Assembly: GCF_004010195.1 (NCBI RefSeq)
Contig: NC_057718.1
Coordinates: 84,050,924-84,073,082, forward strand
Direction: 5' to 3'
Source of the DNA: Chiloscyllium plagiosum
Lineage: Eukaryota
DNA length: 22,159 nucleotides
Within the stretch, counting starts at the first letter, position 1. The number at the start of each line of letters is the position of its first letter. The notes beneath the pieces were generated by a model. It had not been told where the DNA came from and did no database searches. It was given only the letters and a program-made list of their open reading frames with translations. Positions 4,770 to 22,159 of this stretch are shown piece by piece. Position numbers and translations under genes: made by a program.

Positions 4770-5283
4770 TGGTTCTGCTCAGATCGCCCTGCTATAGGAA
4801 AGATGTTATTAAACTGAAAAGGGTGTAAAAAATATTTACAGAGATGTTGCTGAGACTGGAAGGTTTAAATTATAAGGAGAGGCTGGATATCCTGGGACTT
4901 TTTTTTGGTGGAACATAGGAAGCTGAGGGGTGATCTTATACAAGTTTATAAAATCATGAGAGACATCAATAAGGTGAATACCAAAAGACTTTTCCCAGGA
5001 TATGGAAGTCCATAACTAGATGGTGTAGGTTTAAGGTAAAAGGGGAAAGATTTAAGAGACAACGTTTTCACATAGATGTTGCATATATGGAATGAGCTGC
5101 CAGAGGAAATGGTTGATGCAGATACAATTAAAGATTTTAAAGATACTTGAATAGGTACATGGATAGAAAGATTTAGAGTTATATGGGCTAAACACAGGCA
5201 AATGGGACTGGTTCGGTTTAGGAAACCAGGTTGGCATAAGCGATTTGGGCCTGTTTCCATGTTGCATGATTCTGAGATTCTAT
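4770..5283 (+). mobile_element. CR1/HER1 LINE 3' fragment (decayed RT C-terminus plus tail)
   Basis: Residual CYRKDVIKL..V.K.FT.ML..L.GL.Y.ERL and LRGDLIQVYKIMR motifs. Tail gggcctgtttccatgttgcatgattctgagattct. Confidence 0.88.
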
Positions 5284-5621: not shown

Positions 5622-5801
5622 AATCATAGAATCCCTTTCGTATGGAAATAGGTTTGTTGGCCCAAGTCCACACCAACCCTCCGAAGAGTAACCCACCCAG
5701 AACTAATCCCGTGCTTCTCTACATTTATACCTGGCTAATGCACCTAACCTACACATCCCCGAACACTATGGGCAATTTAGCATGACCAATTCACCTAACC
5801 T
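5622..5801 (-). mobile_element. HE1-like SINE, 3' half
   Basis: Matches the tail portion of the full copy at 20986-21301 (caagtccacaccaaccctccgaagagtaacccacccag...gggcaatttagcatgaccaattcacctaacct). Confidence 0.85.
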
Positions 5802-8617: not shown

Positions 8618-8720
8618 TTTCTGTTTCCGATTCCTGAAGAAGGACTTATGCCCAAAACGTCGATTCTCCTGCTCCTTGGATGCTGCCTGACCTGCTGCGC
8701 TTTTCCAGCAACACATTTTT
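8618..8720 (+). mobile_element. 103-bp Penelope-like terminal mini-insertion with 14-bp TSD and mutated hammerhead
   Basis: CACTCCAAGGTCAC flanks it exactly at 8604-8617 and 8721-8734. It contains CTGAAGA-A-GGAC-TTAT-GCCC-AAAA-CGTC and is homologous to 8871-8960 (-) and 14097-14184 (-). Confidence 0.8.
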
Positions 8721-8833
8721 CACTCCAAGGTCACCCCTAGACCCATCCAAGCATTGGAACCTCATTTTGTGAAGGCTTATTGTCTGCCTCATGATCCCCC
8801 TGGTGGAAGAATGTGCTGCACTGTATCTACTAA

Positions 8834-9045
8834 GAGAAAGTAAGGCCTGCAGATGCTGGAGATCAGAGTCAAAAAGTGTGATGCTAGCAAAGCAGAGCTG
8901 GTCAGGCAGCATCCGACGAGCAGGAGTCAACGTTTCGAGCATAAGCTCTTCATCAGGAATGTGGGGGTGCCCTGAGGTCTGAGAGATAAATGAGAGGGAG
9001 ATAGCTGGGAATGCAATATAGATGGAAGTGGGGGGTGATGATGAG
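8834..9045 (-). mobile_element. Penelope-like element terminal fragment
   Basis: Colinear with 14057-14285 (gagaaagt..ctgcagatgctggagatcagagt..tcatcaggaatg..ctgagagataaatg) and carries a hammerhead core. Confidence 0.72.
8925..8960 (-). ncRNA. Minimal type-I hammerhead ribozyme motif, intact core
   Basis: Minus strand AUUC-CUGAUGA-A-GAGC-UUAU-GCUC-GAAA-CGUU-GACU. Both conserved boxes are present, with a perfect 4-bp stem II, palindromic AACGUU stem III and a weak stem I. Confidence 0.72.
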
Positions 9046-9119
9046 GGCTCGTCTTGTGTGTATGGAAGCAGTGGTTCGAGGACAAAAATAAATTGGTCCT
9101 CTATCTCCTCTACAGCTTG

Positions 9120-9849
9120 AGGTACCCTGCAAATTCTTTATTTGGAAGCTTTTCAGTAGCCACCTGAAGGTTGCTGCTGGTCCTGGCCTTAGTGACATGA
9201 GTTCTCAATTTCTGTGGCCCTTTGTGGTGCAGTCACAGCAATGATGGTACTTAGTGTGGCTTGATCCATTGGTGAAGAATACAATGAGTCTCTCTGAGGA
9301 TATCAGAAACAAAGCAGCTTCTTCGTAATGTGATCAGTCAGCAGTCTCAGCACACATATATGTGAGTTTATCATAGTCCTCAACACAGTGGAACATTCGA
9401 GGCCTCTGACAAAGAACGCAGTGGGCTGCCTCTGTATGGACCTTTTAACATAGTGCACTTTTACTGAAATGTATGATTATAAGCCATATTGCACACACAC
9501 AGTAGATTTTAAGTGTCGTAGGAGCACTGACACATTTTCCTCCAACCAAATCTAGCCCAAGGAAGGCAACTTTACATATAACATTTCATACATTGCATCA
9601 GATGGAAGGTTGCTGGACCATTGTTTTAGCAGGAATGGTGTCACTCAGCATTGGCAAGATTGTTGGCGTGACAAAGTGATATGCTGCTATTGCTCTGGGT
9701 GTTGAAGGAATCTGGTGGTATCCCTTTAACAATTCTATTTTGGTTTGAAATCTGGCACTGTCAGCCCCTAGTAATACAATTTTACAACTGAGGAAGGAGT
9801 TGAACTTTCCTTTGTTATTGACCTTTCTATAGTCTATGCAAAATCTGCA
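9120..9849 (-). mobile_element. Decayed Gypsy/Ty3 LTR retrotransposon pol (RT to RNase H) fragment
   Basis: Minus frame from 9849 reads CRFCIDYRKVN...TKIELLKGYHQIPSTPRAIAAYHFVTP then PATF after a frameshift, the classic Gypsy RT motifs. An FRWLL-like RNase H end motif lies near 9170. Confidence 0.8.
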
Positions 9850-9854
9850 TTTGG

Positions 9855-9975
9855 TGAGGTGATGGCAAAATAATGATGTTACTGACTAGCAATCCAAAGA
9901 CCCAGTCCAATGTTCTAGGGACATGAGTTAAAACCCCACTGCAGCTGATGTAGTTTCAGTGCAATAAATCTGAAA
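9855..9975 (+). mobile_element. tRNA-derived head of a SacSINE1/DeuSINE-like SINE
   Basis: gaggtgatggc..tgttactgactagcaatccaaagacccagtccaatgttctagggacatgagttaaaacccc, with degenerate A/B boxes, resembles the recalled shark SINE head. Confidence 0.5.
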
Positions 9976-10122
9976 TCCCTAAGTGTCACAACATTTGTAT
10001 TCCAATTTCAAAGACAACAGAAAAATTGAAGTTAATGTGGAAATCAGTTTAGTTATTGAGTCATAAAGTCAGTCATACAGCATGGAAACAGATCCTTTGG
10101 TCCAACTTGTCCATGCTGAACA

Positions 10123-10415
10123 GCCAGGAAATTCCTAGAAGCATGGCACTCATCCACAAACTCCATCCACAAACACATCGACCTGGACCCAATATACCGG
10201 CCACTACAGCGGACAGCTGAAACTGACAACCGGAAGCGGCAGGTACAGGCCACTATAAATGCCGGAGGAAACACCACAGAGGCTCTTACCAGGAGGCTCC
10301 CAAGCACTGAGGATGTCACCTAGACAGGGGACGAAACGTTTGCAACAAAAACTTCCAGCTCGGCGAACGGAACCACAGCAACAAGCACCCGAGCTACAAA
10401 TCTTCTCACAAACTT
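10123..10415 (+). mobile_element. 5'-truncated Penelope-like element: GIY-YIG endonuclease C-terminus plus terminal repeat with hammerhead
   Basis: Open frame 10123-10323 reads ARKFLEAWHSSTNSIHKHIDLDPIYRPLQRT...STEDVT*, with the R.FLEAW..SI.K motif typical of PLE GIY-YIG ends. TGAACAGC is repeated at 10117-10124 and 10416-10423. CpGs are preserved. Confidence 0.82.
10304..10343 (+). ncRNA. Minimal type-I hammerhead ribozyme motif, intact core
   Basis: GCA-CUGAGGA-U-GUC(A)CCU-AGAC-AGG(G)GAC-GAAA-CGUU-UGC. Stem I is GCA/UGC, stem II is 3+3 bp with an A.G mismatch, and stem III is the palindrome AACGUU. Predicted cleavage after U10340. Confidence 0.78.
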
Positions 10416-11225
10416 TGAACAGCTTTCCTAAATTGAACTAGTCCCATTTGCCTGTGTTTGGTCTATATCCTTTCTAAACCTTTCCAAGTATCTGTCCAAA
10501 TGACTTTTAAATGTAATTGTACTAGCCTCCACCACTTCCTCTGGCAGCTCATTCTATACACGCACAACTCTGTGTGAAAAGGTCCCTTTGAAATGTTTTC
10601 ACTGTCACTTTAAACTTATGCCATATAGTTTTGGACTCCCATACTCTGAGAAAAAGACCTTGGCTATTCACCTTATCTATGTTCTTCATGATTTTATAAA
10701 CCTCTATAAGGTCACCACGCAGCCTATTCAGCATCTCCCTCTCGCTCAAACCCTCCAGTCCTGGCAATATCTTCATATATTTTTTCTGCACCCTTTCAAA
10801 TATAGCAACATCTTTCCTATAGCAGGGAGACCAGAACTGAACACAATATTCCAAAAGTGACTGTACTGCCATAACATGACCTTCCAATTCCTATATTCAA
10901 TGGACTGACCAATAAATTTACTACTGCTGTAGAAATTTGGATAATTTGTAACTAAATAAATGTTTGTAAGATTATGGAATGATTGGTTCCACTCATCAGC
11001 TGGCTTTTTCATGTAATATTGATACTTTCCCTCTTATGCAGGGTCTATTAGATTGTGACAATTTTAAGTATGTGAGCTAAATTCTCATTACAGCACACAT
11101 TTCAGGATAAGTGCTCCCACCAACACAGCCTCCCATCTGCAACACATGATGAATGCCTCTACATAATTTGATCAGGATACAACAAGAGATGGACAGACAG
11201 AATATTCCAGTTAATGTTGTATTGT

Positions 11226-11231: not shown

Positions 11232-11401
11232 AAACATGTTAGAACCAACCAATTGAATGATTTCATGTAAACCAAACAAAATTTGTATAAGGCAGATTCT
11301 TTGAAATAAAACTATATTTTTCTTTAATGTTTTAGTTGCATAAAAAGTACTTTAAAAATCAAATGCCAACATTCCAGGAACAAGTTTCATCCGTTCAGGA
11401 A

Positions 11402-11504
11402 TTACATATCCATTTTCAACTTGAGAGCTGGTGCAGCTCTGTTATGAAATGTGCCAACCCATTCATAACCTTCTGAATCTATGAACTTGCCTTCCCCTTC
11501 CAAT
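11402..11504 (-). CDS. MORN2: MORN2 last coding exon (103 nt to stop), not in the ORF track
   Basis: Acceptor ttcttcctttgcag|A. The phase matches the upstream exon (AA|A = Lys). Reads LEGEGKFIDSEGYEWVGTFHNRAAPALKLKMDM*, matching the recalled MORN2 C-terminus [33 protein letters not shown]. Confidence 0.93.
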
Positions 11505-12915: not shown

Positions 12916-13202
12916 ATCATAGAATTCCTACAGTGTGAAAGCAGGCCATTCAGCTCATTGAGTCCACACCAACCCTCTGAAGAGCATTCCACCCCTATTT
13001 TATCCCTGTAACCCCACTAATCAAGCCAATCTACCATCCCTGGATACTTCAGGGAATTTAGCATAGCCAATCCACCTAAACTGCACATCTTTGGAATGTG
13101 GAAGGAAACCAGAGCACCTGGAGGAAACCCACGCAGACACAGGGATAATGTGCAAACTCCACAATTGAATTTGGGTCCCTGGTGCTGTGAGACCACCATG
13201 CC
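12916..13202 (-). mobile_element. HE1-like (V-SINE) tRNA-derived SINE with internal deletions
   Basis: Contains the V-domain-like core GTCTGCGTGGGTTTCCTCCAGGTGCTCTGGTTTCCTTCCACATTCCAAAGATGTGCAG on -. Homologous to 20986-21301. Confidence 0.88.
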
Positions 13203-14056: not shown

Positions 14057-14285
14057 GAGAAAGTGAAGACTGCAAATGCTGGAGATCAGAGTTGTGAGTG
14101 TGGTGCTGGAAAAGCACAGCAGGTCAGGCAGCATCCCAGAAGCAAGAGAATCGACATTTTGGGCATAAGCCCTTCATCAGGAATGAGGCTTGTGGGTCGG
14201 GGCTGAGAGATAAATGGGAGGGGGTGGGGTTGGGGGGAGGTAACTGGGAAAGCGATAGGTGGATGAAGGTGAGGGAGAAAGTGAT
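14057..14285 (-). mobile_element. Penelope-like terminal fragment with inactivated hammerhead (14149-14184)
   Basis: Minus strand CTGATGA-A-GGGC-TTAT-GCCC-AAAA-TGTC. Homologous to 8834-9045. Confidence 0.72.
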
Positions 14286-14307
14286 CACCTTCTCCACTTG
14301 CTTATCG

Positions 14308-14438
14308 TTGGACTGTGGGAGAAAACCAGAGCACCTAGTAGAAACCCACGCAAACTCCTCACCGACAGTCAAGCTGAATCAAACCCGGGTTCCTGGCACT
14401 GAGGCAGCAGTGTTAACTACTGAGACAGCATGCTGAGC
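14308..14438 (-). mobile_element. HE1-like SINE, 5' portion
   Basis: ttggactgtgggagaaaaccagagcacc..gaaacccacgca..aacccgggttcctggcactgaggcagcagtgttaactactgag matches the head and core of the other copies. Confidence 0.8.
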
Positions 14439-16590: not shown

Positions 16591-16941
16591 AATCACAGAA
16601 TCAGAATCCCTACAGTGTGTAAACAGGCCTTTTGGCCAAACACCAAACTTCCGCAGAGTATCCCACCCAGACCCAACTCCCTACCCCTTCCCTGTAACCC
16701 AGCATTTCCCATTGCTTATGCACCTAATCTATATATCCCTGAACACTATGAGCAATTTAGCATGTCCAATCCAGCTAACCTGCACATCTTTGGACTGTGG
16801 GAGGAAACTGGAACACCTGGCAAAAACCCATACAGACACGGAGAGAATGTGCAAACTCCACACAGACAGTTGCCCAAGAGTAGAATTGAACTGGGTCTTG
16901 GCACTGTGAGGCAGCATTGCTAACCACTGAGCTACCATGCC
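16591..16941 (-). mobile_element. HE1-like SINE, full length
   Basis: tRNA-like head GGCATGGTAGCTCAGTGGTTAGCAATGCTGCCTCACAG, V-domain-like core and CR1-like tail ending (GATTCT)-type repeats. Confidence 0.9.
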
Positions 16942-18262: not shown

Positions 18263-18460
<198 letters not shown>

Positions 18461-19129: not shown

Positions 19130-20182
19130 ATGATGCACGTATAGACATTAAAATAGAGAGGTTTATGGTGAGATGGGAAAGATTTAATAGGGACCCAAGG
19201 GACAACTTAGGTTGTGGTGGTGCTTGTATGGAATGAACTGCCAGAGGAAGTGGTGGAGGTTGGTTCAACTACATTTAGTGAACATAGAGGTATAGCTAGT
19301 AGGTTTGCAGATTACACCAAAATTGAAAGTGTAGTAGACAGTGAAGACGGTTACCTCAGAGTACAACAGGATCTTGATGAGATAGGCCAATGGGCTGACC
19401 AGTGGCAGAAAATGGTTAATTTAGATAAATGCGAGGTGCTGCATTTTGGAAAGGCAAATCAGGGCAGTACTTATACATTTCAATGATAAGGTCCTGGGGA
19501 GTGTTGCTGAACAAAGAGACCTTGGAGTGCAGATTCATAGTTCCTTGAAAGTAGTCACAGATAGATAGGATAGTGAAGAAGACGTTTGGTATGCTTTCCT
19601 TTATTGGTCAGAGTATTGAGTATAGGAGTTAGGAGGTCATGTTGCGGCTATATCGGACATTGGTTAGGCCACTAACCATTGTGTGCCATTCTGGTCTCCC
19701 TCCTCTAGGAAGGATGTTGTGAAACTTGAAAGGATTCAGAAAAGATTTACAAGGATGTTGCCAGGGTTGAAGGATTTGACCTTTTGGGAGAGGCTGAATA
19801 GGCTAGGCTGTTTTCCCTGGAGCATCGGAGGCTGAGGTGTGACCTTACAGAGGTTTATAAAATCATGAGGGCCATGAATAGGGTAAATAGACACGGTCTT
19901 TTCCCTGGGATGGGGAGTCCAGAACTAGAGGGCATAGGTTTAGAGTGAGAAGGGAAAGATTTAAAACTGATCTAAGGGACATGTGTGTATGGAATGAACT
20001 GCCAGAGGAAGTGGTGGATACTGGTACAATTGCAACATTTAAGAGGCATTTGGATGGGTATGTGAATAGGAAGGGTTTGGAGGGATAAGGGCCGGGTGCT
20101 GGCAACTGGGACTAGATTAATTTAGAATATCTAGTCAGCAAGGATGAGTTGGACTGCTGTACATCTCCTCTATGACTGTGAC
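19130..20182 (+). mobile_element. CR1/HER1 LINE: short 3' piece (~19130-19270) fused to a longer RT-to-tail fragment (~19285-20182)
   Basis: SRFADYTKI..QQDLDEIGQWADQWQ..NLDKCEVLHFG, later FWSPSSRKDVVKLERIQKRFTRMLPGL. WNELPEEVV occurs twice (19228 and 19989). Tail ctctatgactgtgac. Confidence 0.92.
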
Positions 20183-20985: not shown

Positions 20986-21301
20986 TTTAGATTAGATTAG
21001 ATTACTTACAGTGTGGAAATAGGCCCTTCGGCTCAACAAGTCCACACCGACCCTACAAAGAGCAACCCACCCAGACCCATTCCCCTACGTTTACCTCTTA
21101 TCTAACACTACAGATAGTTTAGCATGGCCAATTCACCTGACCTGCACATCTTTGGACTGTGGGAGGAAACCAGAGCACCCGGAGGAAACCCACGCAGACA
21201 CGGGGAGAATGTGCAAACTCCACACAAACAGTTGCCCGAGGTAGGAATTGAACCCAGGTCTCCGGCGCTGTGAGGCAGCAGTGCCAATCACTGTGCCACC
21301 G
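20986..21301 (-). mobile_element. HE1-like SINE, near full length and young, with (TAATC)n tail
   Basis: Head CGGTGGCACAGTGATTGGCACTGCTGCCTCACAGCGCC, B-box GGGTTCAATTCC, V-domain-like core and tail gtaagtaatctaatctaatctaaa. TTTAGATT occurs at both junctions (20986-93 and 21302-09). Confidence 0.92.
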
Positions 21302-21743: not shown

Positions 21744-22159
21744 AGAACATAGAACATAGAAAAATACAGCGCAGTACAGGCCCTTTGGCCCTTGATGTTG
21801 CGCCGATCCAAGCCCACCTAATCTACACTTGCCCACTATCCTCCATATGCCTATCCAATGCCCGTTTAAATGCCCATAAAGAGGGAGAGTCCACCACTGC
21901 TACTGGCAGGGCATTCCATGAACTCACGACTCGCTGAGTAAAGAACCTACCCCTAACATCTGTCCTATACCTACCACCCCTTAATTTAAAGCTATGCCCC
22001 CTCGTAATAGCTGACTCCATACGTGGAAAAAGGTTCTCATGGTCAACCCTATCTAAACCCCTATAGTTTAGACTCACCGGCCTATGTTACTAGGGTTATC
22101 CCTACTCCCCTTCTTGAACAAGGGAACCACATTTGCTATCCTCCAGTCTTCTGGCACTA
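21744..22159 (-). mobile_element. Young CR1 LINE with (TTCTATG)n tail and a large internal RT deletion; runs off the window
   Basis: Minus strand VPEDWRIANVVPLFKKGSRDNPSN/RPVSL is joined directly to RGLDRVDHENLFPRMESAITRGHSFKLRGGRYRTDVRGRFFTQRVVSSWNALP. CpGs are preserved. Confidence 0.9.

Follow-up and report, generated by a model that had tools for sequence, protein, structure and literature searches.

A 299-bp insertion in a LINE relic

The window analyzed here is a single 22,159-nt stretch of Chiloscyllium plagiosum DNA, and all positions are counted from its first letter. It contains an insertion that is probably the 3' end of a Cercyon-like retrotransposon of the Penelope/Poseidon clade, inserted once and now inert. 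The clade label is our assumption, drawn from the order of domains and the likeness to the Anolis element PAc. The features of the locus are as follows.

10071..10116, minus strand: 3' end of the host LINE relic
10117..10124, no strand: left-hand member of the 8-bp direct repeat pair TGAACAGC, with 7 of the 8 bases also belonging to the element (5' microhomology)
10118..10418, plus strand: 5'-truncated Penelope/Poseidon-type element (net 299 bp), comprising the end of an endonuclease ORF, a terminal repeat with a hammerhead, and a start-of-ORF tail
10123..10206, plus strand: frame 1, last conserved part of a GIY-YIG-type endonuclease domain
10207..10323, plus strand: frame 1, C-terminal tail of 38 codons that crosses the promoter-like region and enters the hammerhead, with stop codon TAG at 10321-23
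10230..10236, plus strand: CCGGAAG, possible upstream promoter element, also NRKR codons
10254..10260, plus strand: TATAAAT, candidate TATA box, overlapping an in-frame ATG at 10259-61
10285..10291, plus strand: initiator-like position, TCAC in the family majority, with private changes at 10288 and 10289 in this copy
10304..10343, plus strand: type-I minimal hammerhead ribozyme (min-HHR), predicted cut 10340/10341, fitting the consensus in Fig. S3 of PMC4209133
10313..10315, plus strand: ATG composed of A9, the additional U, and G10.1, where the RT-EN ORF in frame 2 likely begins, with core A6 at Kozak position -3
10313..10418, plus strand: first 35 codons of the putative ORF in frame 2, 33/36 identical to residues 19-54 of protein P0169
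10341..10418, plus strand: AC-rich segment 3' of the predicted cut site (69% A+C), ending at ORF nt +103 to +106
10416..10423, no strand: right copy of the 8-bp direct repeat TGAACAGC, its first 3-4 bases being also the element's 3' end
10424..10890, minus strand: remainder of the LINE relic that hosts the insertion, continuing the left flank collinearly across a single 8-mer copy
11402-11504 and 18263-18460, minus strand: two exons of a MORN-repeat gene

The limits of the insertion were established by aligning contigs and reads from four public runs to positions 10020-10500 at 85% likeness. Upstream of 10118 the family sequence continues with codons for TIIGQAKQR, the preceding endonuclease codons, and loose ends lie before 10118; at the other side it ends at about 10418-19, as seen from pieces ending at 10418 and from loose ends behind 10418/10419. 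Joined forms that skip 299 bp (~300) correspond to the uninterrupted LINE, which is confirmed by another LINE copy in the window. The joined forms and the family ends together identify a 299-bp 5'-truncated copy within an older, antisense LINE relic, presumably of the CR1/HER1 type. The 8-bp direct repeat is of the kind left by PLEs, either as a target-site duplication or as 5' microhomology; as its bases are partly derived from the element at both ends, the two are inseparable, and the reading as a clean 8-bp target duplication was softened to duplication and/or microhomology. No second copy of the element was found in the 22,159-nt window, and the insertion is solo.

The insertion is on the opposite strand from the MORN-repeat gene, about 1 kb past its stop and about 0.8 kb past its poly(A) signals, which are near 11330 and 11230. 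The gene, which we take to be MORN2-like, has its last exon at 11504-11402 (Pfam MORN E 4e-11). Cleavage of the MORN pre-mRNA by the hammerhead was ruled out, as the motif is on the wrong strand and downstream.

Other parts of the window carry repeats of several kinds. Copies of a SINE-like family (5663-5801, 12920-13192, 14296-14436, 16603-16936, and 20998-21300) and LINE 3' ends (4772-5225, 19159-20059, and 21823-22086) are presumably of the HE1/HER1 type. The open frame at 8646-9137 (minus strand) resembles a scrap of a DDE transposase (Pfam DDE_Tnp_4 E 0.02, below the cut-off), and the one at 9598-9885 (minus strand), which has no Pfam match, we take to be a scrap of a Gypsy-type RT. A Pfam search of 11 other ORFs in the window gave nothing above the cut-off.

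A minimal hammerhead of the PLE type

The original prediction had located a minimal hammerhead at 10304-10343, and every coordinate agrees with the sequence. Stem I is formed by GCA (10304-06) and TGC (10341-43), and the core CTGAGGA (10307-13) is followed by a single extra T at 10314. Basal stem II pairs GTC (10315-17) with GAC (10330-32) and can be extended beyond an A.G mismatch by CCT/AGG, leaving a 4-nt loop. GAAA occupies 10333-36, the palindrome ACGT occupies 10336-39, and N17 is U10340. The extracts of PMC4209133 used here, mainly its main text and Fig. S3, describe PLE min-HHRs with a CUGANGA core, one extra base before helix II, and a G10.1-C11.1 pair, together with a long helix II, a short helix I, and a loop-less palindromic helix III. 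The present motif has the same make-up: CTGAGGA, GAAA, and UU (10339-40) give the pattern CUGANGA...GAAA...UH, T10314 is the one base between A9 and 10.1, G10315 pairs with C10332 (p 0.97), and ACGT supplies the palindromic 15.2-16.2 without loop 3. With all four hallmarks of PMC4209133 present, the assignment to the PLE-type class stands, and the motif is confirmed as a real min-HHR, a known kind of motif. Stem III had been drawn as AACGUU; the palindrome is there, but helix III proper is only ACGT, since AACGUU includes A14 and U17, and pairing these would block the core instead of building it. The palindrome around helix III extends to a perfect 8 bp, AAACGTTT, at 10334-41.

A descriptor with a palindromic helix III and a minimum of 3 bp in each of stems I and II gave 0.0033 chance matches per window in 1500 first-order Markov simulations of the window; with the palindrome dropped, the figure was 0.055. 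The Rfam scan gave 7 matches at E<=5, none of them to a hammerhead, so the canonical hammerhead models do not recover the motif. When folded alone, the 40-nt motif forms stem I with p 0.79-0.86 and basal stem II with p 0.94-0.97; a 57-nt stretch including flanks folds no better than shuffled sequences (z 0.27). When two strands are folded together, A14 is paired with U17 by the 8-bp palindrome (p 0.87), an arrangement that would block the hammerhead core, and stem I across the strands is rare (p 0.09). The C17 variant likewise failed to fold into an active dimer in the model. A pattern scan of viral contigs for the motif gave 0 matches.

A second, shorter hammerhead-headed repeat family was seen in the same window at 8875-8965 (minus strand), 8630-8720 (plus strand), and 14097-14190 (minus strand), with the core CTGAWGA and a 4-bp stem II. 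Of the three copies, the one whose core is at 8956 (minus strand) still fits the descriptor; in the others the CG on the GAAA side is gone.

A likely start codon and a stop codon within the ribozyme

The original prediction overlooked that the ATG at 10313, within the hammerhead, likely also opens the RT-endonuclease ORF of the family. P0169 was the only frame-2 match among 2 candidates and continues into an RVT_1 domain; it is 92% identical over 223 aa to P0001, which ends at the hammerhead stop. The distant 832-aa ORF P0023 begins at the peptide of the hammerhead ATG (17/40 identical, E 3e-4). The annotated start of P0169 is an in-frame ATG lying 54 nt further upstream, equivalent to 10259, and the ATG at 10259-61 overlaps the TATA-like box and has a weak context, with a pyrimidine at -3. 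We infer that 10313 is the start, because of A6 at -3 and the agreement with P0023 and PAc. Two spellings of ATG are possible within 10310-10315, A6-N7-G8 and A9-N-G10.1, which share a frame and are offset by three bases; the ending DEVS of P0005 in place of EDVT, seen in the protein alone, is compatible with a switch between the two spellings.

Read from 10123, the frame stays open over 66 codons and ends with the TAG at 10321-23. This stop had been placed within stem II; more exactly, it straddles the last upper stem II pair and the loop. The search with the frame-1 protein gave 5 matches among 23 candidates, and the 74-88% identity to these 5 proteins of Chiloscyllium punctatum and Hemiscyllium ocellatum bears out the predicted C-terminus of a GIY-YIG-type PLE; Pfam on the 67-aa frame-1 peptide gave a chance match only. 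Among longer relatives, RVT_1 was found in P0169 and P0001 and a weak Pfam GIY-YIG match in P0005 (E 0.027, below the cut-off), so that a single ORF with an RT plus a GIY-YIG domain at the C-terminus is present in relatives and not in this truncated copy. The stop recurs at the hammerhead position in five of the seven subfamily proteins with an endonuclease end (P0001, P0003, P0004, P0005, and P0039), and of the other two, P0002 reads through it and P0006 stops earlier. A regular expression run over 168 proteins found the endonuclease end in 68 and the hammerhead-register peptide in 6, but missed P0003 and P0039.

ATG 10313 and TAG 10321 are 8 nt apart in different frames, giving an overlap of start and stop of 11 nt. 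With both overlapping inside the ribozyme, the repeat unit would have no UTR. On the sequence evidence, the terminal repeat in the shark family consists of the end of the putative ORF overlapped with its beginning, and holds a hammerhead, the first ORF codons, and a tail. The ORF is estimated at ~837 aa and the unit at ~2.5 kb without UTR, by arithmetic from overlapping database proteins, the unit being pieced together from predicted proteins. A literature search, with most subscription papers and Repbase outside its scope, found no stop/start overlap inside a PLE hammerhead. On that search, what seems new here is a hammerhead that carries the ORF stop besides the likely start, as a start inside a hammerhead has already been published for Anolis PAc. 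An AUG in the core is not universal, being present in ~20 of the 56 published rows (by eye, PMC4209133 Fig. S3).

The promoter-like region and family transcription

TATAAAT (10254-60) and CCGGAAG (10230-36) are both present where the original prediction had pointed them out. TATAAAT occurs 14 times in the window (8 on the plus and 6 on the minus strand), and CCGGAAG, presumably an ETS-like element, occurs once. The majority TCAC of the family sits 26 nt after the TATA-like box and may serve as an initiator. A TATA box plus the initiator TCACT are described for the terminal repeats of A. vaga Penelope elements in the extract of PMC3846280 used here, and this precedent makes a promoter reading plausible for the shark repeat; by analogy, a candidate terminal-repeat promoter upstream of the hammerhead is plausible. 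A sigma-70 promoter scan, a model ill-suited to a vertebrate, found nothing.

RNA data came from run X21, a poly(A) single-cell run of which ~2% was read, with low power for cut ends. Family RNA is biased toward the sense of the element (~205 versus 26 raw reads at 10326-42), and the LINE flank is biased in the opposite direction. Only 5 of 836 raw RNA reads were at least 99% alike to the copy. No pile-up of read ends was seen at the cut or anywhere else in the X21 raw reads, at the low power stated.

Two observations concern the structure of the family. C at 10340, which is silent in frame 2, accounts for 52% of raw RNA reads but, in each of two DNA runs, for only 30% and 6% of the contig depth, and the C17 subfamily is perhaps the transcribed one. 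Another subfamily matches from ~10283 on and differs upstream (loose ends at 10290, from 86 contigs of one run and 120 of another), suggesting that a conserved module starts at the initiator-like position, ~20 nt before the core.

Relatives and known systems

In a quick tree of 45 chosen proteins, with no named Poseidon, Neptune, or Cercyon reference among them, the 9 from sharks group as a single clade (SH-aLRT 99) that splits into two subfamilies. The group sister to this clade (SH-aLRT 92) includes P0010, and proteins of the tapeworm Sparganum proliferum lie further out. The shark PLE proteins are 49-58% identical over RT-EN to P0009, P0010, P0023, and P0027, near flatworm-type sequences. 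Together with the S. mansoni(1) motif described below, these comparisons hint, as a first lead, at a Cercyon-like origin of the shark family and perhaps at transfer between parasite and host. A metagenome scan with P0023 returned 7 distant loci (29-50% identity), uninformative on the start/stop junction. P0003, P0006, P0013, P0018, and P0019 are predicted host proteins ending in pieces of the PLE ORF, annotated as 5'-nucleotidase domain protein 1, MAP3K7, CUE domain protein 2, EYA3-like, and WW-binding protein 2-like; these are either exonized copies or annotation artefacts.

The nearest hammerheads by look are those of the Cercyon PLEs of flatworms. Two Clonorchis sinensis rows in Fig. S3 of PMC4209133 share the GCA/UGC stem I, the helix II start GUC(A/U)CC, and U17, and the S. 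mansoni(1) row encodes, by eye, 16 residues identical to the tail of P0010. In P0010 and these flatworm elements, frame 1 reads through the hammerhead, whereas the shark frame 1 stops inside it. As at this locus, min-HHRs are described in the extracts of PMC4209133 as mostly solo copies from truncated PLEs; the rows of Fig. S3 consulted include no shark, and the main text is silent on start or stop codons in the motif.

The closest functional parallel is the Poseidon element PAc of Anolis carolinensis (Frangieh et al. 2024, PMC11167929; extracts), whose ORF starts at stem II and whose hammerhead cuts 26 bp downstream, compared with 28 in the shark. Reverse transcription of PAc starts at +111-118 in an AC-rich segment, the protein is needed for cutting, insertion proceeds from unprocessed RNA, and no reads end at the cut. 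The AC-rich 3' end lies ~110 nt into the PAc ORF, compared with 103-106 in the shark. The extracts describe an ORF-pLTR junction and a repeat upstream of the start in PAc, with no mention of a hammerhead stop codon, and PAc activity has been demonstrated, whereas that of the shark family is putative. As in the shark, the repeat of the Adineta vaga Penelope element holds the first 12 ORF codons (22 with the tail), a TATA box, and an initiator, and the 5' junction of its insertions shows duplications or microhomology of 8-10 bp (Arkhipova et al. 2013, PMC3846280); in contrast to the shark, no overlap of ORF end and start is described in the extract used. Non-LTR retrozymes share the type-I hammerhead, a PLE origin, and occurrence in one chondrichthyan genome (bioRxiv 10.64898/2026.07.22.740005, in part). 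They are tandem and non-coding, whereas the shark insertion is solo and coding-derived, and it is not a retrozyme.

A proposed mechanism

We regard as well supported, overall, an account in which the locus holds a truncated PLE with a hammerhead bearing start and stop codons, uncut RNA is the template, cutting acts as a brake, and this copy is inert. By analogy with PAc, transcription would start in the upstream repeat shortly before the hammerhead and translation would begin at the hammerhead ATG. The ribosome would stop inside the downstream hammerhead, adjoining the AC-rich segment, and the new protein would bind this segment and start reverse transcription there. The predicted cut at ORF nt +28 would remove the start codon from the 5' copy and the priming segment from the 3' copy. 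Since a cut would strip one or the other, uncut RNA would be the transposition template, and the hammerhead may act on tandem transcripts as a brake or processing step that is slow, depends on dimers and protein, and is not required. Because the present insertion includes sequence to the left and right of the cut site, the RNA it came from had either not been cut or been rejoined; the insertion would have been copied from ~+105 back to 10118 and joined to the target by the 7-nt microhomology.

Alternative explanations

The hammerhead likeness could in principle have arisen by chance within coding sequence, a reading that gains something from the missing Rfam match, the folding z of 0.27, and the constraint that both frames put on the letters, yet is scarcely credible given the 0.0033 matches expected per window, the usual PLE position of the motif, its four hallmarks, and the existence of near-identical motifs in the rows of PMC4209133. 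Family variation argues against it as well: the only variants listed inside the hammerhead, from 40 of 114 rows, are N7 and N17, both free positions (P 0.046). The hammerhead is only weakly conserved relative to its flanks, with 0 of 21 polymorphic places in the same rows within the 31 constrained positions (expected 2.2, P 0.09), and the two reading frames confound any such comparison. No compensatory pair in helices I/II was found among these 40 rows; compensatory changes in both helices have been published for other genomes. The stop codon is a different matter, and we lean slightly toward its being in the hammerhead incidentally, with a protein that functionally ends with the endonuclease, a frame 1 that runs on to the first stop, and selection on the start codon and RNA fold only. 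This reading is compatible with the account above and concerns only the meaning of the overlap. Mean pairwise identity in 5 relatives is 0.87 in the endonuclease core (over 68 aa) and 0.71 in the tail. Among family-polymorphic changes, with 7 private places set aside, 2/7 are synonymous in the tail, 4/7 in the endonuclease core, and 4/7 in frame 2; the tail count is close to its neutral share of 0.29 (~0.3 for the three regions), and none of these counts is significant (frame 2, p 0.12). The tail thus seems weakly constrained, so the position of the stop may be incidental. The chance that a frame stays open for 38 codons is 0.16, P0023, P0009, and P0011 end well ahead of the hammerhead register, and P0007 and P0010 pass through it. 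Against an accidental placement, the same stop codon is found in five of the seven subfamily proteins, from two genera, and frame 1 also extends as far as the hammerhead, or into it, in a second shark subfamily (P0007 and P0019) and in the P0010 cluster.

Two further alternatives concern what the ribozyme does. The original prediction suggested a young family whose ribozyme may still work, but neither suggestion is supported for this copy. Its private changes, defined as differences from at least 95% of family depth, number at least 7 in 299 bp (2.3%), 4 of them in 10281-89, and are a minimum from 40 of 114 rows; of 25938 contigs aligned in run X3 (LINE flank included), 2212 are at least 99% alike, 5488 are 95-99% alike, and 18238 are below 95%. 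With these changes, no partner copy in the window, and a template that was uncut or rejoined, activity here finds little support. Continued cutting by a young copy at this locus, for example by pairing in trans with family transcripts, is accordingly very unlikely: all core and stem positions are intact, trans partners exist because the family is very abundant and transcribed, and U17 is common in published min-HHRs (24 of 56 rows, by eye, PMC4209133 Fig. S3), but the solo copy lies ~0.8 kb beyond the MORN poly(A) signals on the other strand, the palindrome pairs A14 with U17 in the two-strand fold and stem I across the strands is rare there, and even dimers of min-HHRs cut poorly in vitro according to the extracts of PMC4209133. 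GUC and GUA are the fastest cleavage triplets (PMC3138052, in part); even so, U17 does not show the copy to be dead, as most of the depth in both DNA runs has U at this place (C share 0.30 and 0.06), and from this and its frequency in published motifs it is not specific to this copy. The copy is almost certainly inert, that is, uncut in vivo, because it is solo, has a damaged initiator, and lacks a known sense transcript. A model in which dimer cleavage frees unit-length RNA and ligation restores the hammerhead in a circular RNA, the ORF running one full turn plus 11 nt and the circle being translated and/or reverse transcribed, we consider unlikely. Its geometry fits: the cut is downstream of both ATG and TAG, so only rejoining would reconnect the start to the ORF, and a circle could yield a copy spanning the cut site. 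Circular intermediates have been proposed for PLEs (PMC4209133), and self-cleaving motifs can support cap-independent translation (PMC13725137), as far as the extracts of these sources go. Tandem DNA repeats, however, yield this geometry with no circle involved, in vitro insertion of PAc hammerhead mutants is normal, with no reads beginning or ending at the cut (PMC11167929, extracts), the X21 reads show no pile-up of ends (at low power), and Naiads proliferate without hammerheads (PMC8557442, in part). The PAc and Naiad data thus weigh against a required role of the hammerhead.

Implications for the shark PLE family

Beyond the brake-type account, the ORF might be closed, in the sense of a unit without untranslated sequence in which the ribozyme is the junction of gene end and gene start and a translation switch, a possibility that we hold to be rather doubtful. 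If it were true, cleavage would uncouple the start from the body of the ORF, and ligation would make a circular mRNA that is translated for one full turn. The 11-nt overlap could, on tandem RNA left uncut, lead to termination-reinitiation, and a ribosome ending in the hammerhead would gate its folding. The single copy at 10118..10418 is itself ordinary debris of a very abundant family. For the family, a ribozyme that carries both start and stop would mean that cutting must silence the 5' copy and strip the priming segment from the 3' copy, unless the ends are rejoined.
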